Source: a candidate division LCP-89 bacterium B3_LCP (lineage in GTDB: Bacteria > Electryoneota > B3-LCP). Taken from it: a stretch of 64,000 nt of DNA. The DNA is taken from positions 1 to 64,000 of the forward strand of contig NJBN01000007.1 in assembly GCA_005223185.1 (NCBI GenBank), read 5' to 3'. Of the stretch, positions 37,643 to 64,000 are shown one piece after another (positions within the stretch are counted from its first letter, which is position 1; each line of letters starts with the position of its first letter). The translations under genes and the position numbers were made by a program. Below the pieces are notes generated by a model. The model saw nothing but the letters and a program-made list of their open reading frames with translations, ran no database searches and was not told the origin of the DNA.

Positions 37643-40090
37643 ATGATTTCAACAAGATACATACGTTTTCTGTTCCTTGCTCTCACTTTTACGGTTGGGA
37701 TGATCAGCATAATCGCTGTTTTTGACGGTATGACCTCCAAACCGACCGACGGTCTGATCTGGCGTTTAGGCCTCGACCATGTAATTGTAGAATCGATAGT
37801 TACCGCCGGTCCCGGGGAAAAAGCCGGCTTAAAAGTGGGAGACCAGATATTAGGAATAAACCACGTTCTGGTCAGGAACCCCGGGGAAGCCGCTTCCATC
37901 TTGATGGGACTCCAGATTGGATTCAGAATTCCCTACCTGATTCAGCGCGGTGATGAGATTATCACTTTAGAATTAACGCCGCATCCTTACCGCACGGGTG
38001 ACAACACCCTGCTCTACAGTGCCTTAGTCGGCTTTGTTTTCTTGGGTGTCGGCTTGTACACCTGCCTGAAGCAGCCAAATTCCCCGCCTGCGCGCATATT
38101 CCTGTTGATGAATCTCTGCTTTCTGCTGGTTCTCACCTGTAGTTTCCGAGGCAGCCCTTACTACTGGATCGATCTCTTGGTACAGAATGCAGCAAGTTGG
38201 GGGTTAACATTTTTAGGACCCCTGTTTCTTCATTTCTTTCTATTGTTTCCCAAGCGTAAACCGATTTTAAACCGCTTCAAGGCACTGATTCCAGCGCTGT
38301 ATCTGATCCCCTGGATCAGGCATTTTGCCTATACGCTATCACAATATTTTGGTGGCGGTCTCTGGGAACAGGAACTGTTCGGCGTTCAGATTGAATTATG
38401 GGCAATTTTAGGGATCTATCTGATAGCTGGTTTGTGGGCGTTAATGCACTCCTACTTAAGTACAACCGATCCCTTGGAACGCAGGCAGATCAAGCTTGTT
38501 CTCTGGGGTACCTTCATCGGCTTGTCTCCTTTCATGATATTCTCAGTCTTAGGCGCTGGCATTTTCGAACAGCGCAATCTGTTCTCTATAGGGGTGGTTC
38601 CTCTGGCTGTAATTCCACTTTCGTTTGCTTACTCTATCATTCGTTATAGATTGTTGCGAATACAGGTAATAATCAAACGAAGCATCCTCTATTCTCTGCT
38701 GACGGGCTTATTCATCGGCGTTTATATGGTTATAGTCCACGTTTTGGGTGGCTGGGTGGAACGGGTTACTCCCTTTGGTGGCGGTTTCTTCGGAGTATTA
38801 TTCGTGCTGGTATTCGCCATAAGTTTCGAACCGGTTCGTTCGCGCTTACAACAGGTAATCAACCGCCTCTTCTTTCGCTCGGATTATCACCGTCAGAGTA
38901 CTCTGGATAAATTATCCAGATCATTCCGCAATATCGAGGAAATGGGCAAACTGGCTCGTGCCACACTCCATGCAGTTGATGAGATATTCCAACCGGAAAA
39001 ATCGAGTCTTTCCATCATTACAGACCGCCCTGGCGCCATCGAAGTCAATCAGTTCACACTGCAGAAGGGTAAAACCGACGAGAGGATCTACAAGCTGAAT
39101 GAAGATGAACCCGTAGATTTCGCCGCTGAATTTATCCAGTGCAACGGTAAAAATATAACCACTGATAACATTCATATTGGCGGTGTTCAGGGCGTGCAGT
39201 TAGAGCGTTCACCCGACCATCTGAAGCTCCCCATATTCAGCCATGACAAAATTGTCGGACTCCTGTCTTTAGACGCCAAACGATCCGGCGAGAAGTACGC
39301 AATCAACGAACTTGAAGCACTTGAAGCTTTCTGCGGACAGGCTGGTTTAGCTATAGAGAACATACAGTTACTAAAGTCAATCTTTGAAGCAAACCAAAGG
39401 CTTTTTGAGGCTGAGAAGCTGGTGAGTTTAGGGCAATTGGCGAGCGGCGTAGCGCATGAAATTCGCAACCCTCTCTCTTCCATTAAGCTTAACATTCAGG
39501 GATTGGCGCGCAACATGCGACCTGATCAGATGAATAAACGCAGGTTGGATATTATCCAGCGGGAGATAGATCATCTTGATCATATCGTCCATGACGTGCT
39601 GATCTATGCCCGACCATCCGGCTTGAAAATAGAACCGGTACAACCGGAAGAGGTGATCTACCGAACGGCAGAGTTGTTATCACCTGACTTAAAGGCAGCC
39701 GAGCATAAGATTGTTTTAAATTTCCCGGAGAACTTTCCTAAGGTCGCCGCTGACCGTGAAAAGCTCCACCAAATTTGCAAAAATCTGATTGTGAATGCAG
39801 CAGATGCGATGGGGACAAAGGGGCGGCTGGAAATCACGGGAAGAGTCTTTTCAGGGAAAGTTGATCTGATTTTCAACGATAACGGCCCGGGCATTGCTGA
39901 AGAGGACGTAAGTTCCATATTCAATCCCTTCTTCACTACCAAGGCAGATGGAACTGGCCTGGGTCTTGCGAATGCTCAGAAGTTCATCCAGGAGATGAAT
40001 GGTGAAATTACGGTGAAGTCCACTCTGAAGGAGGGAGCTGAATTCACCATCACGTTGCCTGTTTATCAAGAGAAGAAACTGGAGAAATAG
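37643..40090 (+). CDS. Sensor histidine kinase with periplasmic PDZ domain, polytopic TM region and GAF domain
   Basis: PDZ GEKAGLKVGDQILGIN; multiple TM helices; HisKA VAHEIRNPLSSI; HATPase NLIVNAADAM ... DNGPGI; stop overlaps the start of the response regulator. Confidence 0.85.
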   Translation: MISTRYIRFLFLALTFTVGMISIIAVFDGMTSKPTDGLIWRLGLDHVIVESIVTAGPGEKAGLKVGDQILGINHVLVRNPGEAASILMGLQIGFRIPYLIQRGDEIITLELTPHPYRTGDNTLLYSALVGFVFLGVGLYTCLKQPNSPPARIFLLMNLCFLLVLTCSFRGSPYYWIDLLVQNAASWGLTFLGPLFLHFFLLFPKRKPILNRFKALIPALYLIPWIRHFAYTLSQYFGGGLWEQELFGVQIELWAILGIYLIAGLWALMHSYLSTTDPLERRQIKLVLWGTFIGLSPFMIFSVLGAGIFEQRNLFSIGVVPLAVIPLSFAYSIIRYRLLRIQVIIKRSILYSLLTGLFIGVYMVIVHVLGGWVERVTPFGGGFFGVLFVLVFAISFEPVRSRLQQVINRLFFRSDYHRQSTLDKLSRSFRNIEEMGKLARATLHAVDEIFQPEKSSLSIITDRPGAIEVNQFTLQKGKTDERIYKLNEDEPVDFAAEFIQCNGKNITTDNIHIGGVQGVQLERSPDHLKLPIFSHDKIVGLLSLDAKRSGEKYAINELEALEAFCGQAGLAIENIQLLKSIFEANQRLFEAEKLVSLGQLASGVAHEIRNPLSSIKLNIQGLARNMRPDQMNKRRLDIIQREIDHLDHIVHDVLIYARPSGLKIEPVQPEEVIYRTAELLSPDLKAAEHKIVLNFPENFPKVAADREKLHQICKNLIVNAADAMGTKGRLEITGRVFSGKVDLIFNDNGPGIAEEDVSSIFNPFFTTKADGTGLGLANAQKFIQEMNGEITVKSTLKEGAEFTITLPVYQEKKLEK

Positions 40091-41458
40091 ATGAAGCAGA
40101 TATTAATAGTAGATGACGACGCTTCCAGCCGAGAATCCATTATGCTGAACTTGCACAGGGATGGCTGGCAATTCTCAGAAGCCGCTGACGGGCAGGAAGC
40201 TCTAAATATCGTCAATGCTGAACATCCGGATTTAGTGATCTGTGACATCCGCATGCCCCGCATGGACGGCCTGGAATTCCTGAAACTTGCCAGAAAGCAG
40301 AATCCCGACCTCCAGGTAATCATGATCACTGCTTATGATGATATGCAGACTACGGTTAAAGCCATTCAATCGGGCGCTTATGAATACGTGCGCAAACCGA
40401 TCGATCTGATCGATCTTGAGATCACCATACAGCGAGCGCTCGAGACACAGGATATGAGCAGACGCCTCGATGGATTTGCCAATACGATCGGCAAGGATTT
40501 TCGTATCGACAACATAATCGGTAAATCATCCGGTATGCTGGAAGTCTTCAAAATAATCGGCGCAGTGTCCAAATCTAATGTAACAGTATTAATCAGGGGA
40601 GATTCCGGCACTGGAAAAGAGCTGATCGCTAAAGCCATCCATTATAACAGCCCCTACAGAGATCATCCCTTTATCCCTATCAACTGCACGGCTATCCCGG
40701 AAAACCTGATTGAATCGGAACTTTTCGGACATGAGAAAGGATCATTCACCGGAGCGGTAACACAGAGCAAAGGAAAATTTGAGTTGGCTGGTGAAGGAAC
40801 CATCTTTTTAGATGAAATCGGTGATATGCCCCTGCAGCTACAAACCAAGCTGTTACGAGTTATCCAGGAAAGGACCTTCGAACGTGTCGGCGGCAACCGT
40901 TTACTACGTTCTGAAGCACGAATTATAGCGGCTACACATCAGGATTTGGAGAGACTTCTCGAATTGGAAAATTTCCGGGAAGATCTGTACTACCGCCTCC
41001 GTGTGGTTGAATTAAACGTTCCACCGCTACGAAACCGACGGGAGGATATTCCCCTATTGATTGAATACTTAATTGAGAAGATCAACAGGGATTTGGGCAC
41101 CAACGTGCGCAAAGTATCGCCTAGCTTAATCAACATGCTGACCGGTATGACCTGGAGAGGCAACGTACGGGAACTCGAAAACCGGCTGCGCCGAGCGATC
41201 GTCCTGTGCAGAGGAGAAGTTCTCATACCGGACGATTTTGAAGAAACTGCTGAGACCGCCGCCACACCCTCTGATACTGTATCCCTCATGCCGTTTAGCA
41301 CTCTGGCTGAAGCAGAACGCGATTACATTCTCAAGGTCTTGCAACACAATAACTGGAATAAGAAGAGAACCTGCGAAGTCTTAAGCATAGCCCGCACTAC
41401 CCTCGACAGAAAGATAGAACAATATCAGCTTAAAGCGGAAAACAAATCGGAAGAATGA
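40091..41458 (+). CDS. Sigma-54-dependent response regulator (NtrC family)
   Basis: REC domain (D at DIRMP), AAA+ sigma-54 interaction domain with GSFTGA, C-terminal Fis-type HTH. Confidence 0.9.
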   Translation: MKQILIVDDDASSRESIMLNLHRDGWQFSEAADGQEALNIVNAEHPDLVICDIRMPRMDGLEFLKLARKQNPDLQVIMITAYDDMQTTVKAIQSGAYEYVRKPIDLIDLEITIQRALETQDMSRRLDGFANTIGKDFRIDNIIGKSSGMLEVFKIIGAVSKSNVTVLIRGDSGTGKELIAKAIHYNSPYRDHPFIPINCTAIPENLIESELFGHEKGSFTGAVTQSKGKFELAGEGTIFLDEIGDMPLQLQTKLLRVIQERTFERVGGNRLLRSEARIIAATHQDLERLLELENFREDLYYRLRVVELNVPPLRNRREDIPLLIEYLIEKINRDLGTNVRKVSPSLINMLTGMTWRGNVRELENRLRRAIVLCRGEVLIPDDFEETAETAATPSDTVSLMPFSTLAEAERDYILKVLQHNNWNKKRTCEVLSIARTTLDRKIEQYQLKAENKSEE

Positions 41459-41560: not shown

Positions 41561-41656
41561 AATGGGGAGACAGGGGATGGCGGACATCCTTGTCTGTCTA
41601 TTAAGCCACCTGTCAGATAGGAATATCTGACCTCCCCGTATGTATCTTGACAGACG
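41561..41656. repeat. G-family tandem palindromic repeat, second locus
   Basis: ggcggacatccttgtctgtc ... ctgtcagataggaatatctgacctcccc; a permuted match to 951..1065. Confidence 0.6.
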
Positions 41657-41750
41657 TTGTAATACCTTTTTCTAATAACTCCTCCATTCTGGCACCTATC
41701 TTGCGATAACATCCCTTGATTATCCCCTAATTTAAGGTAATTCTACTCTT

Positions 41751-43301
41751 ATGAGAGTAAAAGTGATCATTGGTCTGCTGGCGCTGATAGTGATAATCTC
41801 TCTGGCGCTATCATTACAGACCGACCGTAAGGTAACGACCAAATCCGATCAAGCCTATAATTACTTCTTAGCTGGCATCGAGGACGCCAACCGCCTCTAC
41901 AACAACGAGGCGCTGGAGAACTTAGAAGCGGCTGTAATGCTGGATAGCTCTTTCGCTTCCGCCTGGGCTTACCTGAGTAAGTACTATGCGATATTAGGGC
42001 AAAAGGAAGAAGCCTCAATCGCCGCTGATTTAGCCTTCGACTTATCACAAGACCTGCCTGAAAGAGAACGCCTGAATATTCACCTGGTCACCTGTGGATT
42101 GCGCGATGATTGCGACAATTTCGACGAAATCCTGGACTATATGCTAAAGGAATTTCCGGAAGAATTAGACCCTCATCTATATAAAGCTGGCATCTATTGG
42201 AAGGAAAACAAGATTGTTGAGGCGATTGAAGAATACGAGACCGCCTATCAAATCAACCCCAACTATGCTTTAATTTACAATGAGTTGGGTTATCTGCATG
42301 CTACCATTGGGGATCTAAAAAAAGCCATTGAATACATGAAGAAATACGTATTCATTGCACCCGATCAGGCAAATCCTCATGATTCTTTGGGCGACATTCT
42401 CATCAGAGTGGGTCGCTATAGAGAGGCGATCGATCACCTTCGCAGCGCTCTCTCCGTAAAACCGAATTTAGCGGCAGAACCTAACAACTTAGGACACGCT
42501 ATTTATCTGCACCTGGCTACAGCTAATCTACGATTGGGTCGCTTAAAACAAACTGAACAGCATTTAAATCGTGCCATTGAATTAGCTCCGAATGAATGGA
42601 TGAAGAATCAGGTAATAACGGCAACGACAGAACTGTTCAGAACGCAAAGAAAATATGCAGAAGGCATAGAATCATTGAAGCGCGTTCACAGTCCGGAGAA
42701 GTTTTACAAGAACATGGTTCTCGAACATTTGGCCTATCTATATTCGGATATCAACAGGGACGCTGAGATCATGGAATTGATTGACAAACTTGAAAGATAT
42801 CTCTTTGAGATTATCCGGGAAGCTGGTGGGGATTCTATTGAAGTAACGTCTGAGAACTATAAAGAGTATATTAGCATGTCCTGCAAGAGCGAAGGAATCA
42901 ATCGTAGATTGGAGATGCTTCGAGTTTTCCACGATCGTGCCAGTGGAAAACTTATCCAGGCAAAAGAGCAAACTGCTGCCCTTATCGAACATGAAAAGAA
43001 CTTCGAAGCGAAGATGTTCTGGACATTTTTCAAGGCGGGTTTGGAACATGATCTGGGGGATTATCAGGCCGCCTTGCTGACATTGGAACCATTCATAGAA
43101 ACGAATCCCAACGATCCTGACGTTACCATTCTTCAGGCAAAAGTCTTAATGAAAAGCGATCAGTATGACCAGGCGAAGGATCTGCTAAAAGCATTTCTAA
43201 TATCTACTGATGGCGCTGATGAAGATTGGATCCCAGCCCACGAAGCCAGGGAGTTGCTAAAACGTCTAGAAGAGACAACTTTAACACTTACTGATCATTA
43301 G
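41751..43301 (+). CDS. Membrane-anchored TPR-repeat protein
   Basis: N-terminal TM helix; multiple TPR-like helical repeats (AYNYFLAG ... YNELGYLHA ...). Confidence 0.7.
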   Translation: MRVKVIIGLLALIVIISLALSLQTDRKVTTKSDQAYNYFLAGIEDANRLYNNEALENLEAAVMLDSSFASAWAYLSKYYAILGQKEEASIAADLAFDLSQDLPERERLNIHLVTCGLRDDCDNFDEILDYMLKEFPEELDPHLYKAGIYWKENKIVEAIEEYETAYQINPNYALIYNELGYLHATIGDLKKAIEYMKKYVFIAPDQANPHDSLGDILIRVGRYREAIDHLRSALSVKPNLAAEPNNLGHAIYLHLATANLRLGRLKQTEQHLNRAIELAPNEWMKNQVITATTELFRTQRKYAEGIESLKRVHSPEKFYKNMVLEHLAYLYSDINRDAEIMELIDKLERYLFEIIREAGGDSIEVTSENYKEYISMSCKSEGINRRLEMLRVFHDRASGKLIQAKEQTAALIEHEKNFEAKMFWTFFKAGLEHDLGDYQAALLTLEPFIETNPNDPDVTILQAKVLMKSDQYDQAKDLLKAFLISTDGADEDWIPAHEARELLKRLEETTLTLTDH

Positions 43302-43945: not shown

Positions 43946-44079
43946 GTCGCCCAACTTCACTTTATTTTTATCCTGAATCGAAAATCCTACAGAAAAAGTT
44001 TCATTATCCTGCAATTTAATGGCAGTATTCTTGCTACCATCTTTATAAATCTGTGAATTAAAACCTCGAGGTAAACAAA

Positions 44080-47000
44080 ATGTGTATCCCCCGTATGACC
44101 TTCCTTCATATCGTTGTAGCAGTTGTTACCTGCAGTTTTCTAACATCAGTTTCAAACGCTCTGGTGCCGATCCCCAAAGAAATGGTTGAGATGCGTATCA
44201 GCGGCAACCCAGCAAACGGTTCCATCATCCATCTGGATTTTGCAGAATACTGGCAATCTGCCGGTGAAATTACCGGTGATGAAGCGCTCAGTTTCTGGGT
44301 GACACTGCCCGACCTGGGTCAACCTTCGGCCAAAGTACGTGTTTTTACTTCTGATGGCATTTTACATACAATTTCAGAGTGCGCCCAAATAGGGGAACCT
44401 GCAATCATTCGGGGAGTCCGCGTTGCCTCTGTGACGATACACCCCGTCATACAGGGAGATTCCGGTTCAGAAGCAGTCGAAGAAATGGATATAATGATAT
44501 CCGCTTCCGGCACCGGAATAAACGAAGTTTATCAGGATAGACGATCACAGGCTTTCGATGGAATAATCAGCTCCTTTGTAGTGAATCCACCAGGTGTAAA
44601 CGCCACGGATGATTTTGAACAGGAACACATGCTGATAATATGCCCGGATTTTGCCCAGGAGATAATCACGCCTTTCGCAGAATGGAAGCGCCGCAAGGGG
44701 CTGGAAGTAACGCTCTCGACATTGACGGAAATTGGCATCACAGCCGACGATTTTGAAGGGATGAAGGATTACATCCAGGAAGCGTACGACACCTGGCTAA
44801 ACCCACCCGATTTCGTCCTGCTTGCGGGCGATGAAACCGTACTCCCAGTCAGAGCGGACTGGACTGACGATCCCCACACGATGTTTTCAACCGCTTCCGT
44901 TCCGGGTACCTACTTAGATGATAACTACTTCGCCTGCGTTGATGGATCGGATTTCTTCCCGGATATTATCTTAGCGCGTTGGCCTTTACCCAATGAAGGC
45001 TATTCCTATGCCTATGTGTCCGCAAAGACTATGCGTTATGAAATGGCTCCAACTTTGGACCAAACAGATTGGTATCAGCACTCTGCGGTTACTGCTCAGG
45101 GCCCACTATATGATCCCACAAACCTGACTCAACGTGAAACTAAACTTTACACTAAGGATCTTATGTTGAACTTCGGATTTGCCGAGGTCGATACGCTCTT
45201 CGATCCTTATTCACCAGACCAACTTGTGCAGTGGGTAAATGACGGTTTGAGTTATGTTAACCACCGCGGCGCAGGTTGGAGTTTCGGTTGGGCTGGGAAT
45301 AATTTCTATATAGATCATGTACTGGAATTACAGAATTCCTTCATGCTTCCCGTTGTGACCGGTATCGGTTGTGGTGTGGGACTCTTCGGTGATCCCGGCA
45401 TCTGCTTCGGAGAAGCCTGGATGTGGGTTGTTGGCACTATGACCAACCATCGCGGTGCTATTGCGTTTATAGGTCCAGGTTGGAACACGCATACCTTTTA
45501 CAATGATTCCCTTGATATTGGACTCTATGAATCGATCTTCGTAGAATCAGAACCACGAATAGGAGCATCCCTAATTGACAGCAAGCTGTTCATGTATGAT
45601 GCCTTCGATGATTACATTCCTCTTGATCCGGACATAGAGGAAATACTGCGAGTGGCATTCAACCAGTATTATCTCTTCTCCGATCCAGAACTGAAACCCT
45701 ACAACAACGTCCCTGCTGGATTGCAGACAGCAGAAACAATTCCCGTAGCACTGGGACAGGGTAGCTTTTCCCTGACTTTTACCATTCAAGACGGCGCTGG
45801 CTTGCCCTTTGAAGGTGCCCAGGTCTGCCTCTACCACCCGGAAGATTTTCAATCTGTTGATCTCACCGATGCCAACGGCGAGGTAGAGCTGGATTGGGAT
45901 ACCAACACTGAATCTTCCTTCGTTTATTTCACGGTTACTGCACACAATCACGCCCCTATAGTTGATAGCATAGCAGTAATAGGTGATCAGGCTTATGTGC
46001 TACACTATGACTTCGAACTTGATGATTCTATGGGTGGAAACGGAGATGGAGGCATATCCCCGGGCGAATCAGCCGACTGGATCGAGACAGTTAGAAACTG
46101 GGGATTGAATGATGCATCAGAAGTTAATGCCATCTTGACCAGCCTGAGTCCGACAGCAATCGTAATACAGAACAGCTCATACTTCGGTGACATTCCTGCA
46201 GAAGCCACCATGATGGGAACTCCGAATTTCGTAATTTCAGTCGATCCGGAAAACTATACAGTTGGGGATTCTCTGGAGTTCCAGATAGACGTCTCCGATG
46301 CATTGGATTCCTGCTGGACCTCTTATGTGGACGTACCCCTGGTAACACCTATATTAAGCTACATTTATGCAGCGCCTGACATTTATACCAATGGACTGAT
46401 AGACCGAGGTGAAACTTGCGAAATGTTCATCGGTGTTTATAACAACGGTTTCGTTGACATAGATGATGCCGTCCTAGAACTTCACACTGATGATCCTTAC
46501 ATCGAAATAATAGACGGCACGATTGACATAGGTCCTTTTAATGCGGGTTCAATGTACCTGAGCTACTATGCTTCTCCGCAGGATTCCTTCATAGTGAGTG
46601 CCAGCTTGTACGCGCCTATGTACTATGAGGCTGAATTCTGGATGAAGATCAGTTCAGAACAGGCAACCTACTTCTATGAAGATTCGGTTTCCTTTGTTCT
46701 TCCCATAGGGCAAATCTTTGAAGGCGACCCCACATTCGATTCCCTGGAAACCTACTTCGGTTATGAATCGCTGGATACCTTATACGAAGAATGCCCAACC
46801 TACGAATGGTTCGAGATCGATCCTGATTCGGGTGGTCCGGGATATGTCCTCCCATTCTCCTATGAAACACAAACATTGAAGATCGAACTTCCCTTCACGT
46901 TCACGTATTGGGGTGAAGATTTCGATAGCTTGACTGTGAGCGCCGACGGTTGGATCATGCCGGGGGTAACATCTGCAGTCGCACCTGATTACCAGCACTT

Positions 47001-47718
47001 TCCCTATGAGGATGAAATTACAGGAATAATCGCTCCTATGTGGCTTGATTTATGGAATCCCACATCAGAAACCGGGAAGATATGCAGTTATTACGATGAT
47101 GTTAATGGAAAGCTCTACATAGAATATAACGGTGTCTCAAATGACTTCTCGCCCATCTTCAAGGAAACGTTCCAGATTGTACTCTTCGACCCAACAGAAC
47201 AACCAACCCTGACCGGCGATAGTGAATTCATGTTCTACTATCGAAGTCTATCCATCTTTGGCCTTCAGTACTGTTCTGTTGGTCTAGAGAGTCCAGATCA
47301 AAACATTGGCATCGAGTACTCATATGGTATGACTTTCGCATTCACAGTAAATGGGATTGAAGACAGCTTAGCCATCAAGTGGACCACCGATCCACCACCC
47401 AGTTTCCTGTACGTACCACCGCTACCTGATCCCGGAACGGTGATGCAGATACCTGATGAGTTCACCTTCGCAGAGCCTTACCCCAATCCGTTCAATCCAA
47501 CAACAATGCTGAGGTTCGCTATTCCGGTTGCAGGAAAGGTGGAACTGGAGATATTCAACGTCAGGGGACAGCGCGTAGCAGAACTTTACAGCGGTAAAGT
47601 AAACGCTGGCTGGCACCGCTTCGAATTTGACGGATCAAACCTGGGATCCGGAATCTACTTCGCCCGTTTAATTTATCAGGATCAACCCACGGTGCATAAA
47701 TTACTCCTGGTCAAGTAA
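44080..47718 (+). CDS. Peptidase C25 (gingipain-like) family protein with T9SS C-terminal sorting domain
   Basis: C25 catalytic-domain pattern (DFVLLAGDETVLP ... YVNHRGAGWSFGW ... TGIGCGVGLF); C-terminus PYPNPFNPTTMLRF ... KLLLVK; 1212 aa. Confidence 0.75.
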   Translation: MCIPRMTFLHIVVAVVTCSFLTSVSNALVPIPKEMVEMRISGNPANGSIIHLDFAEYWQSAGEITGDEALSFWVTLPDLGQPSAKVRVFTSDGILHTISECAQIGEPAIIRGVRVASVTIHPVIQGDSGSEAVEEMDIMISASGTGINEVYQDRRSQAFDGIISSFVVNPPGVNATDDFEQEHMLIICPDFAQEIITPFAEWKRRKGLEVTLSTLTEIGITADDFEGMKDYIQEAYDTWLNPPDFVLLAGDETVLPVRADWTDDPHTMFSTASVPGTYLDDNYFACVDGSDFFPDIILARWPLPNEGYSYAYVSAKTMRYEMAPTLDQTDWYQHSAVTAQGPLYDPTNLTQRETKLYTKDLMLNFGFAEVDTLFDPYSPDQLVQWVNDGLSYVNHRGAGWSFGWAGNNFYIDHVLELQNSFMLPVVTGIGCGVGLFGDPGICFGEAWMWVVGTMTNHRGAIAFIGPGWNTHTFYNDSLDIGLYESIFVESEPRIGASLIDSKLFMYDAFDDYIPLDPDIEEILRVAFNQYYLFSDPELKPYNNVPAGLQTAETIPVALGQGSFSLTFTIQDGAGLPFEGAQVCLYHPEDFQSVDLTDANGEVELDWDTNTESSFVYFTVTAHNHAPIVDSIAVIGDQAYVLHYDFELDDSMGGNGDGGISPGESADWIETVRNWGLNDASEVNAILTSLSPTAIVIQNSSYFGDIPAEATMMGTPNFVISVDPENYTVGDSLEFQIDVSDALDSCWTSYVDVPLVTPILSYIYAAPDIYTNGLIDRGETCEMFIGVYNNGFVDIDDAVLELHTDDPYIEIIDGTIDIGPFNAGSMYLSYYASPQDSFIVSASLYAPMYYEAEFWMKISSEQATYFYEDSVSFVLPIGQIFEGDPTFDSLETYFGYESLDTLYEECPTYEWFEIDPDSGGPGYVLPFSYETQTLKIELPFTFTYWGEDFDSLTVSADGWIMPGVTSAVAPDYQHFPYEDEITGIIAPMWLDLWNPTSETGKICSYYDDVNGKLYIEYNGVSNDFSPIFKETFQIVLFDPTEQPTLTGDSEFMFYYRSLSIFGLQYCSVGLESPDQNIGIEYSYGMTFAFTVNGIEDSLAIKWTTDPPPSFLYVPPLPDPGTVMQIPDEFTFAEPYPNPFNPTTMLRFAIPVAGKVELEIFNVRGQRVAELYSGKVNAGWHRFEFDGSNLGSGIYFARLIYQDQPTVHKLLLVK

Positions 47719-51339: not shown

Positions 51340-51972
51340 TTAGCCGGCATTTGCCTGAGTGTCGCCGCGTTGCGTCTCATCAATGTAATCAACCAATTCG
51401 ACAGTAGCTTCTTCCATATCAATGACGAGCTTGTCAACACGCGAGACGAAGTAGTTGTGGAATACCTGGATAATCATCGCCACAATCAGACCGAAAAGCG
51501 TAGTCAACAAGGCTTCGGAAATGCCGCTCGCCACGATGGACGGGGATATGTCATTGGCTTTAGCGATGTCTTCGAAAGATTTGATCATCCCGGAAACTGT
51601 ACCGGTAAACCCTAACATAGGTGCAATGGCGATGACCGTGGAGAGCCAAACTAGATTTTTCTCCAGAAACGCCATTTCTATAGAACCTGAAGTCATTATC
51701 GCCTTTTCGACGTGGTCCAGACCGCGATCAAACCTCATTAGTCCAGCGTGCAATACCGAAGCTACCGGTCCACGAGTGTTGGCGCAGACCTCCAATGCAG
51801 CATCAACTCCGCCATCAGTCATGGCTTGACGAATATTGAGCACGAACTTGCGTGTATTGACAGTTGCCCTGGTCAAAGTCCACAATCTTTCCAATGTGAA
51901 CATCAGACCAAAAATAAAGAGAGCGAGAATGGGCCACATAAATGGACCACCATTTAGGAAAAGCTCAACCAT
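51340..51972 (-). CDS. exbB: ExbB/TolQ/MotA proton-channel protein
   Basis: Three-TM MotA/TolQ/ExbB topology. Confidence 0.85.
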   Translation of the reverse strand: MVELFLNGGPFMWPILALFIFGLMFTLERLWTLTRATVNTRKFVLNIRQAMTDGGVDAALEVCANTRGPVASVLHAGLMRFDRGLDHVEKAIMTSGSIEMAFLEKNLVWLSTVIAIAPMLGFTGTVSGMIKSFEDIAKANDISPSIVASGISEALLTTLFGLIVAMIIQVFHNYFVSRVDKLVIDMEEATVELVDYIDETQRGDTQANAG

Positions 51973-58820: not shown

Positions 58821-59288
58821 ATGCTCTCAGAAGAAATCAACATCGTCCTCCATAAGGAAGTGGTGAAGTTTACCCTTCACGACGTCCCCGACCGACCCGG
58901 CATGGCTGCTGAAATATTCGACAGCCTGAGCCGAAAAGACATTAATGTGGAGCTAGTGGTTCAAACCGCACGTGAAGGTGGTACAGCGGATATCTGCCTG
59001 GCTGTCTCCTGGGATGATGCCCAAAAAACTCTCGCCGAGTTAAAAATAGTTGAAGCGCAAAACCGAGCAGAAGGAATATCACAGGAAGAAGACATTGCAA
59101 TAATTACCATCGCTAAACAGGGTTTATCGCGGACACCGGGGCTGGCAGCAGGAATGTTTCGTGCTCTGGCGTGCAGTGGTATAAATATTGATCTAATATC
59201 GACCAGTCTCAACAGCATAACCTGCCTTATCAATCGCGAGAATGCAGATACTGCCCGCGAAGCAATAATCACTGAATTTGAGAAATAA
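58821..59288 (+). CDS. Tandem ACT domain protein (aspartokinase regulatory-domain-like)
   Basis: Two ACT-like beta-alpha-beta-beta-alpha-beta units (PDRPGMAAEIF ..., TPGLAAGMFRAL ...). Confidence 0.65.
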   Translation: MLSEEINIVLHKEVVKFTLHDVPDRPGMAAEIFDSLSRKDINVELVVQTAREGGTADICLAVSWDDAQKTLAELKIVEAQNRAEGISQEEDIAIITIAKQGLSRTPGLAAGMFRALACSGINIDLISTSLNSITCLINRENADTAREAIITEFEK

Positions 59289-59437: not shown

Positions 59438-60847
59438 ATGCGCCGTGCGCGAATCTTAATAGTAGATGACGAAGCGGATATTTGCATTCTCTTAGCAGAA
59501 GCATTAGCTTCAGAGGAATGGATAGTTGAGTGGACCACGCGTCCTCTGCAAGCTTTGGACAGCATAAAATCCGAGCCCTTCGATCTCGTACTATTGGACA
59601 TCAAAATGCCGGAGATTTCCGGTCTGGAACTACTCCCACAGATTAAACAGGCTTCTCCTGAAACTGCGGTTACAATGATGAGCGCCTACGGCAATGTCGC
59701 CATGGCAGTGGAAGCCATGAAGGAAGGTGCTGAAGATTATTTAGAGAAGCCTTTTCAGGATTTCGAACAAGTGCGTTTAGCCATCAGCAGATTGGTAGCG
59801 ACTGCCAGAATGCGCATGGAAAACCGCATTCTCAAACAGCAGCTAGAAGAGAAATTCAGCCTGGATGGATTAGTAAGCGCCAGCCCCAGGATGCAGGAAG
59901 TTTTCGCTTTAGTGCGCAAAGTTGCGCCCATAAACACTACAACCCTTATATACGGTGAAACAGGCACCGGAAAAGAACTCATAGCCAGGACGCTGCACAG
60001 AAACAGCAAACGTTCCGAAGGTCCATTTGTCAGCGTAAACTGCGGAGGGTTACCAGAAGGACTTTTAGAATCACTGCTTTTTGGTCACGAAAAGGGTGCT
60101 TTTACCGGCGCCATAAGACGATCCAGAGGCTATTTCGAAGAGGCTGAAGGAGGTACATTATTTTTAGATGAAGTTGGCGAGACTCCTGCCTCTCTACAAG
60201 TTAAGCTTTTGCGTGTACTGCAGGAAAGAACATTCCAGCGGGTTGGTGGCGCCGAAGAGATCACCGCAGAAGTCCGCCTCATAGCTGCAACTAACAAAGA
60301 TTTAGAAAGTGAAGTAGTGAACAACAAATTCAGACAGGATCTGTTTTATAGATTAAATGTAATAACAATCGCCTTACCATCCCTTCGTGAGAGAAAGGAA
60401 GACATTCCCTTTCTGACGAAGTTCTTCATAGATAAGTATGCCAAGGCTTTCGAACGATCGGTGCATAATATCACTTCAAAAGCGGTTCATCACCTTTGTT
60501 CTTTCGACTGGCCCGGAAACGTAAGACAGTTAGAAAATACCATAGAGAGAGCCGTTGCGTTATCAGATAGTGAACAACTCGATCTTTCTGATCTGACAGC
60601 CGAATTGCAGGATCAAACCGGAGATTGGATTTCAGCTATCATCAACCTGCCTTTAAAACAGGCAAAACAAGAATTTGAACGGCGCTATCTGATTGAAAAC
60701 CTGAGACTCCACAACGGTAGAGTCACAGATGCGGCGCGGACTGCCGGTCTGCCCCGCCAGAACTACCACAGAAAGATGAAACAATTGGGTTTACCTTCCT
60801 CACGTGAGCTCGCCGATATGGCAAATCTTCAATTAGAACACTCTTGA
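59438..60847 (+). CDS. Sigma-54-dependent response regulator (NtrC/PilR-like), orphan
   Basis: REC domain, AAA+ domain with GAFTGA, C-terminal HTH; no cognate histidine kinase is adjacent. Confidence 0.85.
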   Translation: MRRARILIVDDEADICILLAEALASEEWIVEWTTRPLQALDSIKSEPFDLVLLDIKMPEISGLELLPQIKQASPETAVTMMSAYGNVAMAVEAMKEGAEDYLEKPFQDFEQVRLAISRLVATARMRMENRILKQQLEEKFSLDGLVSASPRMQEVFALVRKVAPINTTTLIYGETGTGKELIARTLHRNSKRSEGPFVSVNCGGLPEGLLESLLFGHEKGAFTGAIRRSRGYFEEAEGGTLFLDEVGETPASLQVKLLRVLQERTFQRVGGAEEITAEVRLIAATNKDLESEVVNNKFRQDLFYRLNVITIALPSLRERKEDIPFLTKFFIDKYAKAFERSVHNITSKAVHHLCSFDWPGNVRQLENTIERAVALSDSEQLDLSDLTAELQDQTGDWISAIINLPLKQAKQEFERRYLIENLRLHNGRVTDAARTAGLPRQNYHRKMKQLGLPSSRELADMANLQLEHS

Positions 60848-60870
60848 ATTTCATTCCAACTGCCACTAAA

Positions 60871-60975
60871 TGCGCATAATTGCGACATCAGCACAATTTT
60901 ATGACAAGTACGTAACACTTGAATTATTAAGTACTAACTATTACTTTATGGGATTTATCGTCGCATTAATGCGAC
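60871..60975. promoter_or_regulatory. Pair of palindromic candidate enhancer (UAS) sites for a sigma-54 activator
   Basis: TGCGCAtaatTGCGAC (60871..60886) and the perfect palindrome GTCGCAttaaTGCGAC (60960..60975), about 90 bp apart and 110-200 bp upstream of the -24/-12 element. Confidence 0.4.
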
Positions 60976-61066
60976 ACTTTTATCCCATTTTCGCATTTTG
61001 ACTTCTGTTTCTTTGAGAAGCATAAAAATGATATTCTATGATCTTTATTATCATAATGTTACAAAA

Positions 61067-61083
61067 TTGGCATAATGATTGTT
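61067..61083 (+). promoter_or_regulatory. Sigma-54 (-24/-12) promoter
   Basis: tTGGCATaatgaTTGTt matches TGGCAC-N5-TTGCW with correct GG-to-GC spacing; about 80 nt upstream of the pilin-like gene. Confidence 0.55.
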
Positions 61084-61159
61084 TATTACAGTAAAAATTT
61101 CGAACTCAGACAAACAAATCAATAACTAATCAATCCAATTCAATGCTTAAGGAGGTATC

Positions 61160-61573
61160 ATGGGTCAGCAACAACTCCTACTCATCGTTCTATCTGTAAT
61201 CATCGTTGGAATCGCGGTAATAGTAGGTATCAACATGTTCGCCGATCAGGCAGCTTCATCGAATCTTGATGCGGTCACTGCCGATCTTATTAACCTGGCT
61301 TCACGTGCACAGCAGCATTTTCGCCGCCCCACAGCTATGGGTGGTGGTGGTGGCACATTCACTCTCTTGTCTGCTGATGCCGCAGGGATGGCATATCTCA
61401 CCTCTCAGCCCACCAATGAGAACGGAGCTTATACGATTACCTCTGCAGGAAATGGCACAAGCGTTTCAGTCAAAGGAATTGGCTCAGAAGATGGTGACAA
61501 GGACGGAACCAACTGTACGGCGACTATTCAGGTTTGGTCAGACAGCATAGCGGTTGTAATTTCGAACCGTTAG
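61160..61573 (+). CDS. Pilin-like protein with a non-canonical N-terminus (putative major pilus subunit)
   Basis: Strong RBS aaggagg; MG-QQQLLLIVLSVIIVGIAVIVG hydrophobic N-terminal helix but no G/FTLIE prepilin motif; lies between the sigma-54 promoter and a strong terminator, upstream of pilC and pilB. Confidence 0.45.
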   Translation: MGQQQLLLIVLSVIIVGIAVIVGINMFADQAASSNLDAVTADLINLASRAQQHFRRPTAMGGGGGTFTLLSADAAGMAYLTSQPTNENGAYTITSAGNGTSVSVKGIGSEDGDKDGTNCTATIQVWSDSIAVVISNR

Positions 61574-61628
61574 GTTCAACAATGAAAACTATCACGGACT
61601 TTCAGCCTCTACCGACGTCCGTTGATAG

Positions 61629-61675
61629 CAGCCGGCGGATCATTACAACGATCCGCCGGCTGGTGAATATTTTTT
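61629..61675 (+). terminator. Rho-independent terminator after the pilin-like gene
   Basis: cagccggcggatc-attacaac-gatccgccggctg followed by a T-run. Confidence 0.65.
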
Positions 61676-61815
61676 AGTACAATAACCGGTAGAATTATTT
61701 CTACAAACAATAATCAAGGTCAGAAATATTCAATTAAGGATTTTATGTCATAAGCAAAGTTCACTAAATAGTAAGATCTACTATCTGATTGGTGTATCTA
61801 CAGGACGGGTTTACC

Positions 61816-63159
61816 ATGGCGGAATTTCGTTACCAGGGGATTGGGTTATCCGGTCGTATGATCCAGGGGATCATTTCGGCGAATAACAAACGTGATGCCA
61901 ACAGACGAGCTGAAGAGATAGCGCAAAGCAGGCGGTTCAAGCTTAGAAACCTGAATCGCAAAGCCACTTTTTTATACAAAGTAAGAAAAGGTCGTGAGGC
62001 TGCAATAAGTGGTCAGCAGAAGGCATTCAGTTCTGATGAAGTTCGCCGCGCTCTGGAAAAAATGGGCTATACGGTAGTTACCATTCAGAAGAAGCTAATT
62101 GACCTCAAATTAAAACCGCCCACCAAAGATGTAGTTATGTTCATCCGGCTTTCAGCCGACCTTCTGCGAGAAAAACTTCCCTACGATGAAATATTAAATC
62201 TTCTGTCCAACGATATGGACAACAAAAGCCTCAAGCAGACTCTGAAGGAAATTCATCAGGATCTGAAAGACGGCAAGGATGGCGTGGAAGTTTTCGGGAA
62301 ACAAGCTGATGCTATCGGAAAGTTCCCTGCCCACATGTTGGGAGTCGCTTCAAAATCAGGAAACATGGTCGAAATATACGAAGCGACAGCTAAGGTTTTA
62401 GAACGCAACGAAGAATTCAAGAAGAACTTGAAGAGCGCTCTGATTATGCCCAGTGTAGTGGTGCTGGCTTTGTTAGGCGCAGTCCTCTTCTACGTAGCCT
62501 ACATCTTTCCGGAAACTGCCAACATGTTCTTAAAGTTCGATATCGAGCTGCCCCCCATGACAGCAGCTACATTGCAAATGTCTGAATGGCTGCAAGACAA
62601 AGCTCTGCTTATTTTAGGAACGATTGTAGGCGCTGGAATATTTTTAGGTAGATTCTTTACAACACAAAAAGGACGTTTCTTCCTTTCAAGATACTTGATA
62701 AAAGTCCCGGTAATAGGAACTTTGATGCATAAGACGTCCATTGAAATATGGTGTCGAGTGTTCTATTCGCTCTATTCAGGATCTGGTGAAAATGTGGAAG
62801 CCATCAGAGTAGCGGCAGAAGCGTGCAGGAGCCCCTATATGGAACACAGGATAAAGGCAGTCGCTTTACCTTTAATGCTGAAGGAAGGGCAGGGGTTGGT
62901 CGAGGCGCTCGAAAAGACGGGAGTTTTTACGAAAAACGCTCTCTCCAGGTTGCATTCCGGCGCCGAAACCGGCACTATCAGGGAAACAGCCCTTCAAGTA
63001 GCAAATTACTACGAGAAAGAAACAACGCACAAACTCAGAAACATTATAGATTTAATTCAAGTTTTCATTGCCATGGCAATCATGATAGTCATGACAGCAA
63101 TAACCATAATAAGTTCAGAAACTGCCGTGATAAAGCCAAAAATGCCGGGTGTAGGTTAG
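61816..63159 (+). CDS. pilC: Type IV pilus/T2SS platform protein (PilC/GspF family)
   Basis: Two T2SS-F repeats, three TM helices; start set at MAEFRYQGIGLSG (the track ORF begins nine codons upstream). Confidence 0.85.
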   Translation: MAEFRYQGIGLSGRMIQGIISANNKRDANRRAEEIAQSRRFKLRNLNRKATFLYKVRKGREAAISGQQKAFSSDEVRRALEKMGYTVVTIQKKLIDLKLKPPTKDVVMFIRLSADLLREKLPYDEILNLLSNDMDNKSLKQTLKEIHQDLKDGKDGVEVFGKQADAIGKFPAHMLGVASKSGNMVEIYEATAKVLERNEEFKKNLKSALIMPSVVVLALLGAVLFYVAYIFPETANMFLKFDIELPPMTAATLQMSEWLQDKALLILGTIVGAGIFLGRFFTTQKGRFFLSRYLIKVPVIGTLMHKTSIEIWCRVFYSLYSGSGENVEAIRVAAEACRSPYMEHRIKAVALPLMLKEGQGLVEALEKTGVFTKNALSRLHSGAETGTIRETALQVANYYEKETTHKLRNIIDLIQVFIAMAIMIVMTAITIISSETAVIKPKMPGVG

Positions 63160-63162
63160 TTG

Positions 63163-64000
63163 ATGGCTGTAAAGGAAGACATAAAAAGAGGTACTCGCAG
63201 CGGCGAACTCCTGATAGATAGCGGTGTTATTGATCAGGACCTGTTGGATAAGGCGATTCTGATTCAATTGGCGGAAACCGGTTCTCACAGGAAATTAGGC
63301 GAGATACTTATAGAAGATCTTAACTGTGACCGGCATGAGATCTACAGAGAGTTGGCGCGAATATATGCATTTTCGGAAGTAGATTTAGAGAGGGAAGAAT
63401 TAACAGATCAGCGGAGTCAGTGGATTAAGAACATCTATGAGTCCGTTGATAAGGAACATCGAGATAAGTTAATAAATAACAATATACTTCCGTTCCGTTT
63501 AGATGGTAAAGAAAAAAATACCTTACTGATACTTACAGATGACCCTACTGATCGCGAACGTTTCAAAATAGCACAGAAGATCGGTTTTCGCCGCCTGGAG
63601 CTGGCTTACGCACGCAAGGAACTTGTTAAAAAGTGGATAGAGACAATCTATCCAACGACGAATGAATTTCTGCGGATCATTGAAGAGGTTTCTGGAACAG
63701 TTGAAAATCTTGATGACGGTGGTGGAGAAGAATGTGTTGATGAAGATGTTTTAGATCAGGAGATCAATCAATCATTACTTACAAATTTAATAGAGGGGTG
63801 TCTCGTTGAAGCAGTGCGAAGAGGGGTGTCGGATATTCACATAGTCCCTGGTGCAGGTGGATCTTCAGATTTTCTCTTTCGCGTAGATGGTAAACTGGAA
63901 AAATGGCATACTCAGGATAGCATTAAACCGGAAGCCATCTCAGCAGTTGTCAAGGACCGTTCCAGAAACGTGGATCGTTTTGAGAGAGAGGCTGCTCAGG
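63163..64000 (+). CDS. pilB: Type IV pilus/T2SS assembly ATPase (PilB/GspE family), 5' partial (runs off the window)
   Basis: GspE N-terminal domains; no stop codon before the window end; starts 3 nt after pilC. Confidence 0.8.
   Translation, partial: MAVKEDIKRGTRSGELLIDSGVIDQDLLDKAILIQLAETGSHRKLGEILIEDLNCDRHEIYRELARIYAFSEVDLEREELTDQRSQWIKNIYESVDKEHRDKLINNNILPFRLDGKEKNTLLILTDDPTDRERFKIAQKIGFRRLELAYARKELVKKWIETIYPTTNEFLRIIEEVSGTVENLDDGGGEECVDEDVLDQEINQSLLTNLIEGCLVEAVRRGVSDIHIVPGAGGSSDFLFRVDGKLEKWHTQDSIKPEAISAVVKDRSRNVDRFEREAAQ

Follow-up and report, generated by a model that had tools for sequence, protein, structure and literature searches.

A candidate sigma-54 control region with three dyad sites between an orphan activator gene and a pilin-like gene in a candidate division LCP-89 bacterium

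The window analyzed in this study is a stretch of 64,000 nt from the candidate division LCP-89 bacterium B3_LCP. Within it, the gene of a sigma-54 activator (a bacterial enhancer-binding protein, bEBP) is separated by a gap of 312 bp from the gene of a pilin-like protein, and this gap, a candidate sigma-54 control region, is the subject of the analysis. The sequence elements were read over positions 60700-61800 and are listed together with the surrounding genes in table 1. Directly 3′ of the pilin-like gene, genes of the T2SSF and T2SSE type are found in the window and in every orthologous locus.

The pilin-like protein has 3117 homologs, and a total of 90 loci were gathered by a metagenome scan with the alignment of pilin homologs and by exact look-ups of single homologs. 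Eleven non-redundant loci (including the window) are syntenic and share the gene order Obg, in some loci an ACT-domain gene, the activator, a gap of 306-344 bp, pilin, PilC, and PilB. The 11 activator-pilin gaps were aligned and display a mean column identity of 53%. Conservation is confined to five islands, namely the dyads A1, A2, and B, the -24/-12 element, and the ribosome-binding site, and the remainder of the alignment is scrambled. The elements are conserved in sequence, in position, and in their spacing, and they occur together with an adjacent activator gene.

Table 1. Genes and sequence elements at the activator-pilin locus (positions in the window).
Feature	Position	Strand	Remarks
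Gene of a two-ACT-domain protein	58821-59288	same as activator	just 5′ of the activator gene
Obg gene, then DprA gene	beyond the ACT-domain gene	opposite to activator	
Orphan sigma-54 activator (bEBP), 469 aa	59438-60847	+	REC, AAA+, GAFTGA loop, Fis-type helix-turn-helix (HTH)
Dyad A1, TGCGCAtaatTGCGAC = TGCGCataattGCGAC	60871-60886	none	ortholog consensus GTCGC-N6-GCGAC
Dyad A2, AGCACaattttATGAC	60890-60905	none	consensus rTCAy-N6-rTGAC
Dyad B, GTCGCAttaaTGCGAC = GTCGCattaatGCGAC	60960-60975	none	perfect 16-bp palindrome
AT-rich spacer between site B and promoter	60976-61067		73% A+T
-24/-12 element, TGGCATaatgaTTGT (TGGCAT-N5-TTGT)	61068-61082	+	GG at 61069-61070; -12 dinucleotide GT
Predicted transcription start	61093-61095	+	~12 nt past the -12 element, from standard sigma-54 geometry
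Shine-Dalgarno sequence AGGAGG	61150-61155	+	GGAG invariant across the 11-locus alignment
Pilin-like gene, 137 aa	61160-61573	+	N-terminus MGQQQLLL; proposed regulated gene
13-bp GC-rich hairpin	61629-61662	+	3′ of the pilin stop codon; from RNA folding
PilC/GspF-type platform protein	61789-63159	+	two Pfam T2SSF matches
PilB/GspE-type assembly ATPase	63163-64000	+	N-terminal part in the window; from synteny

The upstream part of the footprint consists of three dyads. A preliminary description, made from the letters of the window alone, had reported two palindromic sites about 90 bp apart. Both are present, with 89 bp from start to start (87-89 bp between A1 and B across the loci), and the comparison adds a third site, A2, that had been overlooked and that starts 3 nt past A1. 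In every one of the 11 loci, A1 is located 197-200 nt and B 108-112 nt 5′ of TGGCA, and such fixed distances would be expected of an enhancer that is subject to face-of-helix constraints. A perfect GTCGC-N6-GCGAC is aligned to A1 in L082, L083, L085, L166, and L169, and a version with one or two mismatches in L161, L162, and L168; in the window the left half of A1 is degenerate (TGCGC, two mismatches). The left half of A2 is degenerate in the window as well, and L166 carries GTCATTAAAATGTGAC at the A2-aligned position. T60900 and the TGAC at 60902-60905 within A2 are invariant in 11 out of 11 loci and show the top conservation of the upstream region. The consensus of site B reads tGTCGC-N6-GCGACa, with a perfect site at the aligned position in L161, L162, and L167 and variants of the GTC-N10-GAC type in the other loci. 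Based on these sequences, the motif appears best given as GTCRY-N6-RYGAC with the core GTCGC-N6-GCGAC, present as three sites. A further half-site, TCGCA at about 60990, had also been reported; TTCGCA is indeed found at 60990-60995, but it is conserved in no ortholog and was dropped.

The core motif is rare outside these positions. A perfect GTCGC-N6-GCGAC occurs once in the window (site B) at an expectation of 0.035 per 64 kb, and all nine zero-mismatch copies in the ~70 kb of syntenic loci are located at A or B. The rest of the 64-kb window and 20 kb of the extended cluster L171 contain no further zero-mismatch dyad. Copies with one mismatch were identified at 51361 and 58302 in the window, both within long reading frames, and at two positions in L171.

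A palindrome 3′ of a gene could also represent the intrinsic terminator of that gene instead of a protein site, and a terminator scan flags site B in the window (6-bp stem, 4-nt loop, and the tail ACTTTTATCC). However, the T-rich tail is found in the window genome only, the orthologs being A-rich or mixed at this position (e.g., AAAAACAGCG, AAAAAGTCCC, and AGAAGCATGT), and several orthologous B sites cannot fold as a hairpin (e.g., GTCGCTTTTCAATGTC and GTATCCATAGCGCGAC). Half-sites and promoter spacing are conserved whereas the pairing of the stem is not, no compensatory stem changes were seen, and the motif recurs 89 bp 5′ without a tail. A terminator of the activator gene in place of a protein site is thus hardly credible, and site B might have a minor extra terminator role in the window genome only.

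The -24/-12 element that the preliminary description had placed at 61067-61083 is present (tTGGCATaatgaTTGTt) with the correct GG-N10 spacing, and its reading as a promoter is upheld by the footprint in the 11 loci. The columns of TGGCA and TTG do not vary in any of the 11 orthologs, and the whole island can be written as TGGCAy-N5-TTG(T/A). The -12 dinucleotide in the window is GT and not GC; across the 11 loci, the base that follows TTG is T in nine cases, A in two, and never C. The two other sigma-54-like sites of the window (described below) have a canonical TTGC, and the non-C base at -12 seems to be a deviation that is specific to the pilin promoter and conserved. Within the window, TGGCA-N6-TTGY is found four times as compared with 1.1 expected occurrences.

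A count across the family covered 80 loci (353 kb, both strands). In 40 out of 80 loci, the first pilin gene is preceded at a distance of 40-140 nt by TGGCA-N6-TTG in the coding orientation, where ~0.1 would be expected, and these 40 promoters (36 distinct sequences plus that of the window) make up the bulk of the 66 matches to TGGCA-N6-TTG in the data set. The position that follows TTG is occupied by A in 16, by T in 12, by C in 11, and by G in one of these 40 promoters. Many loci contain two or three tandem pilin paralogs (L083-L160, e.g., L084, L087, L092, L115, L146, and L151), and where this is the case the sigma-54 element was seen only before the first copy. One more sequence, TGGCATCACGTTTGT, is located antisense within the PilC gene (61886-61900, - strand) and is most likely a chance match.

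Transcription of the pilin gene might instead start from a housekeeping-type promoter in the spacer, such as TTGAGA-18-TATGAT at 61013-61042, with TGGCAT-N5-TTGT not being used by sigma-54 at all; the missing C at -12, the unexceptional score of the site, and the existence of sigma-70-like matches in the spacer all point in this direction. Their number (five) compares with 3.3 ± 2.1 in shuffled sequence, and the sigma-70-like stretch is not conserved in the orthologs, whereas TGGCA and TTG are kept at the exact spacing in all 11 orthologs and in half of the 80 family loci (40/80). Moreover, an intact bEBP gene is located next to the gap. Sole use of a housekeeping promoter is therefore very unlikely; at most, a weak extra promoter of this kind may be present beside the sigma-54 promoter.

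The region between site B and the pilin start codon shows few additional signals. A weak match to the binding site of integration host factor (IHF), TATCATAATGTTA, is located in the spacer at 61049-61061, and in only 5 out of 11 loci does WATCAANNNNTTR match, with one mismatch or none, at a shared offset (-19 from TGGCA); an IHF site is therefore tentative and not established. The predicted leader of ~66 nt is unstructured and folds no better than shuffled sequence, and no meaningful Rfam family was identified in the intergenic region or the leader. The leader contains tandem 11-nt repeats at 61113-61134 (AACAAATCAAT and AACTAATCAAT) and is A/C-rich. The leaders of the orthologs are likewise A/C-rich and do not keep the 11-nt repeat.

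The activator has the make-up of the NtrC family, with a REC domain that contains the phospho-acceptor Asp, an AAA+ domain with GAFTGA, and a C-terminal Fis-type HTH. The Pfam models Response_reg, Sigma54_activat, AAA_lid_14, and HTH_8 all match above their cut-offs, and the GAFTGA loop is intact (codons starting near 60095). The sigma-54 activator gene that had been described directly upstream is thereby confirmed, and its stop codon is located 23 nt 5′ of site A1. Orthologs of the activator are 59-60% identical to the protein of the window where this was measured. Within a comparison of 10 activator orthologs, the phospho-acceptor residues (DD/D54/S/K) and GAFTGA are kept, as is the invariant recognition helix AGLPRQN[YF]HRKMKxLG; identity amounts to 74% in the HTH, on par with the ATPase core, as compared with 33% in the linker and 12% in the tail. 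An invariant recognition helix next to drifted flanks fits a conserved DNA target. Judged from these features, the activator is apparently a complete and functional enhancer-binding protein.

Its assignment below the family level is less specific. All NCBIfam matches remain below their cut-offs (best AtoC with 446 bits at a cut-off of 714, followed by NtrC with 424 bits at a cut-off of 559) and no PilR model is among them; the activator can therefore be described only as a generic family member. The nearest solved structures are 4l4u and 1ny5 (NtrC4 and NtrC1 of Aquifex). A search of genome contigs with the activator returned, among the matches listed, only paralogs with 38-46% identity from many phyla, and an exact database look-up of the protein gave no record. 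The gene is an orphan in that all 11 loci lack a histidine kinase gene in its vicinity (3.5-10 kb), and its 5′ neighbors across the loci are the ACT-domain protein or Obg.

The dyad and the activator gene occur together. Out of 11 loci with an adjacent activator ortholog, 10 contain a dyad with no more than one mismatch, and no such dyad is found in 23 distinct distant loci in which the sigma-54 promoter is retained (0/23). In these 23 loci, the region 5′ of the pilin gene yielded no activator ortholog, this flank being shorter than 1 kb in several of them. In place of the dyad, 14 out of 23 distant loci (within L092-L158) contain GGTAA-N3-TTACC dyads at -96 and -76 from TGGCA, which are absent from the 11 syntenic loci. 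The sequences of the distant loci suggest an exchange of the enhancer with the promoter left in place, and a cognate activator is not encoded next to the GGTAA-N3-TTACC dyads. The joint presence of dyad and activator, combined with the invariant recognition helix, fits a conserved protein-DNA pair, and the dyads are probably the binding sites of the adjacent orphan activator. The earlier proposal that the palindrome is the motif of this activator is thus probable and supported by the footprint, in the wider form GTCRY-N6-RYGAC.

The pairing of activator and dyads relies on co-occurrence within one clade, and the dyads could be regulatory but bound by a different protein, such as another bEBP, a repressor, or the additional REC-cNMP_binding regulator that is encoded in the L171 cluster. 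This explanation is unlikely, though less so than the two alternatives above. The dyads occupy the usual position of an enhancer (110-200 bp 5′ of a sigma-54 promoter) at fixed spacing, and the REC/cNMP-binding protein contains no DNA-binding domain recognized by Pfam. Furthermore, a sigma-54 promoter requires a bEBP, and all 11 loci encode, at a distance of 23 nt, a protein of this kind that has a dimeric Fis-type HTH and an invariant recognition helix. Given the position of the sites and the sigma-54 requirement, the adjacent enhancer-binding protein is the economical candidate for the protein that binds the dyads.

Two other sigma-54-like sites were identified in the window. The first belongs to a second sigma-54 module, in which a PDZ-HisKA-HATPase kinase (37643-40090) is followed by a REC-AAA+-HTH activator with GSFTGA (40091-41458), the dyad GTCAGATAggaaTATCTGAC (41611-41630), and a canonical promoter, TGGCACCTATCTTGC (41690-41704); a 516-aa tetratricopeptide repeat (TPR) protein with weak similarity to PilW/Tgl is encoded further 3′ (41751-43301). 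The second, TGGCAGTATTCTTGC (44020-44034), is located 46 nt 5′ of the gene of a 1212-aa C25-peptidase protein (44080-47718) that has a sorting tail of the type IX secretion system (T9SS). Neither of the two sites has a GTCGC dyad. The preliminary description had expected the palindrome to recur at other sigma-54 promoters of the genome and had regarded its absence there, together with a -24/-12 score no better than the background, as a refutation. A dedicated local regulator predicts no dyad at other promoters, so that this test was too strict and the absence does not refute the proposed motif.

The product of the downstream gene had been called pilin-like; its sequence matches a protein of the B3_LCP genome with 100% identity. 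An AlphaFold2 (AF2) model based on 22 homologs has a predicted local distance difference test score (pLDDT) of 90 and consists of a 54-residue N-terminal helix (residues 2-55) and a four-stranded sheet, and its best match in the PDB is the full-length PAK pilin 1oqw (probability 0.99, template modeling (TM) score 0.62, E = 0.048). No Pfam or NCBIfam model matches the protein. It starts with MGQQQLLLIV and lacks a leader peptide, with a stop codon four codons 5′ of the ATG; it has neither Phe/Met+1 nor Glu5, so that no class III signal peptide (N_methyl) is present. The N-terminus is invariant among 22 homologs with 55-85% identity. The fold match, together with the PilC- and PilB-type genes located 3′, justifies the label pilin-like on the basis of the model, and the earlier naming of the gene is upheld, but the protein is not a canonical type IV pilin and may represent a pilin class that is independent of prepilin peptidase. 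The PilC-type gene matches the NCBIfam models GspF and PilC below their cut-offs. The PilB-type reading frame is open up to the end of the window, and the orthologous loci have a gene with MshEN and T2SSE domains at this position.

The hairpin 3′ of the pilin gene begins 56 nt past the stop codon and is followed 8 nt further 3′ by a T6 run. Its folding is significantly better than that of shuffled sequence (z = -6.2; 0/200 shuffles fold as well), and it is probably a terminator, an attenuator, or a 3′ stabilizer of the pilin transcript ahead of pilC and pilB. As a terminator or attenuator, it would likely set the ratio of pilin to PilC and PilB.

Considering the conservation of the five islands and the adjacent activator gene, we estimate a probability of about three in four that the activator-pilin gap is a complete sigma-54 control region with three dyads that is driven by the orphan activator encoded upstream. 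Several points weigh against this interpretation. The organism is uncultured and the entire interpretation is drawn from sequence. The -12 element reads TTGT as compared with the canonical TTGC, and a C is found in 0 out of 11 orthologs. A position weight matrix (PWM) derived from distant relatives places the -24/-12 site no higher than 9th among ~128,000 positions, and the concern in the preliminary description that its score might not exceed the background was fair for a single sequence; the score alone does not establish the promoter, and it is the conservation that decides and overrides this concern. Sigma-54 itself is presumed in this genome from two enhancer-binding-protein genes, the window itself containing no rpoN (no RpoN box was found in the 64 kb). 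A1 (two mismatches) and A2 each have a degenerate left half in the window. No second dyad target is present in the window or in the 20 kb of L171, so that no cross-validation within a regulon is available. Finally, the association of dyad and activator is confounded by phylogeny, the 11 loci belonging to one clade.

The control region would work as follows, with the binding of the activator to the dyads, the use of sigma-54, the start point, the looping, and the control by phosphorylation all being predicted steps. RNA polymerase with sigma-54 would sit on the -24/-12 element (61068-61082) as a closed complex, and the orphan response regulator would bind A1, A2, and B as dimers with centers ~215, 196, and 126 bp 5′ of the predicted start. 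Speculatively, the three dyads would hold six protomers, which is enough for one AAA+ ring. A partner kinase would phosphorylate the receiver domain, and the phosphorylated regulator would assemble into the AAA+ ring, reach the polymerase through looping of the AT-rich spacer, and use ATP and the GAFTGA loop to open the promoter. Transcription would then begin near 61094, and the resulting pilin mRNA would have a leader devoid of structure, a strong site for ribosome binding, and a hairpin at its 3′ end.

By analogy, the locus would work like known cases of sigma-54 pilin control. In Geobacter and Myxococcus, the regulator and pilin genes are direct neighbors, with the regulator gene on the 5′ side. 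In these bacteria and in Pseudomonas, pilin genes are controlled by sigma-54 and a response-regulator activator with upstream sites (PMC6058289, PMC3333781). The PilR-pilA system and the locus described here share an NtrC-family REC-AAA+-HTH regulator, a sigma-54-type pilin promoter, and several upstream sites, with activation at this locus being suggested by adjacency and conservation. They differ in that no PilS-type kinase is encoded beside the regulator in the 11 loci, that the pilin lacks a leader peptide and Glu5, and that the host belongs to an FCB-type (Fibrobacteres-Chlorobi-Bacteroidetes) candidate phylum (LCP-89) and not to the Proteobacteria. The motif differs as well, GTCRY-N6-RYGAC at this locus standing against TGT-N11-AGA plus GTCT as the hallmarks of the PilR site in P. 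aeruginosa (PMC6058289). The preliminary description had recognized the architecture of a PilR-dependent pilA promoter, which holds as an analogy of function; the regulator is not filed as a PilR because a partner kinase at the locus (PilS) and a match to an ortholog-level model are missing and the motif is a different one.

Two further pilin systems can be compared. The pilE gene of commensal Neisseria has a promoter of the GG-N10-GC type, an upstream activator sequence that is bound by a response regulator, and an IHF bend in between (PMC6528607). This Npa/Nps-RpoN-IHF system resembles the LCP-89 locus in its sigma-54-type pilin promoter and upstream regulator sites, whereas the -12 dinucleotide at the LCP-89 locus and its orthologs is GT or GA, the IHF match is weak with a shared offset in 5 out of 11 loci, and the regulator is an orphan while the operon of Npa also encodes its partner kinase. 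DVU2114 of Desulfovibrio vulgaris is a sigma-54-dependent response regulator of Flp/Tad pilin genes with a small set of pilus-only targets and a motif whose conservation is limited to the few species in which regulator and target are both retained (PMC3333781). The pilus in that case is of the Tad/Flp type and not of the PilB/PilC type as in the LCP-89 locus, and the phylum and the motif differ too.

The domain architecture of the activator is the same as in NtrC, which acts at glnAp2, and in NtrC4 and NtrC1 of Aquifex. NtrC dimers bind two-fold-symmetric sites 100-200 bp upstream of the promoter and assemble into a ring, and the NtrC site is TGCACC-N5-GGTGCA. Half-site and spacer differ from those of the LCP-89 dyads, the target gene is a different one, and the arrangement of three sites with an 89-bp gap contrasts with two adjacent strong sites at glnAp2. 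In the literature, no paper was found that joins sigma-54, type IV pili, and Zixibacteria, and the papers on LCP-89 are surveys.

The surroundings of the locus vary between genomes. The ACT-domain gene 5′ of the activator is present in the window and in L161, L162, L164, and L167 and is not found in L166, L168, and L169; this gene and that of the orphan regulator could share a transcript. The extended cluster of one ortholog (L171:10001-20414) contains, in this order, genes for the pilin, PilC, PilB, an unknown 170-aa protein, a REC+cNMP-binding protein, an unknown 183-aa protein, a DUF4900 protein, a Big_1/invasin-like protein, a second T2SSE ATPase, and a TPR protein. Genes for a prepilin peptidase or PilMNOPQ were not found within 10 kb in this cluster.

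The family-wide data allow a broader interpretation, which is tentative and which we consider less likely than not. The sigma-54 promoter may be an ancestral and defining feature of a leaderless pilin family of >3000 proteins that spans LCP-89, Zixibacteria- and Calditrichota-type bacteria, and related uncultured lineages, in which individual clades would have swapped the enhancer together with the activator, most -12 bases would be non-canonical, and pilin assembly would perhaps proceed without a prepilin peptidase.

The regulatory principle is a textbook one, and the result fills in the map rather than changing it: a known regulatory architecture appears in a lineage and with a binding motif that are both new, an interpretation that is well supported by sequence comparison. 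The less ordinary aspects are the leaderless pilin family, the swap of the enhancer under a kept promoter, and the mostly non-canonical -12 base, and the comparison of the loci provides a clean natural example of an enhancer that was apparently replaced while the promoter was kept. The link between sigma-54 and pilin genes would be extended well beyond the Proteobacteria. For the orphan regulator of an uncultured phylum, the analysis offers a concrete candidate motif (GTCRY-N6-RYGAC, three sites, fixed spacing), which would also predict when these sediment bacteria produce their main surface filament.

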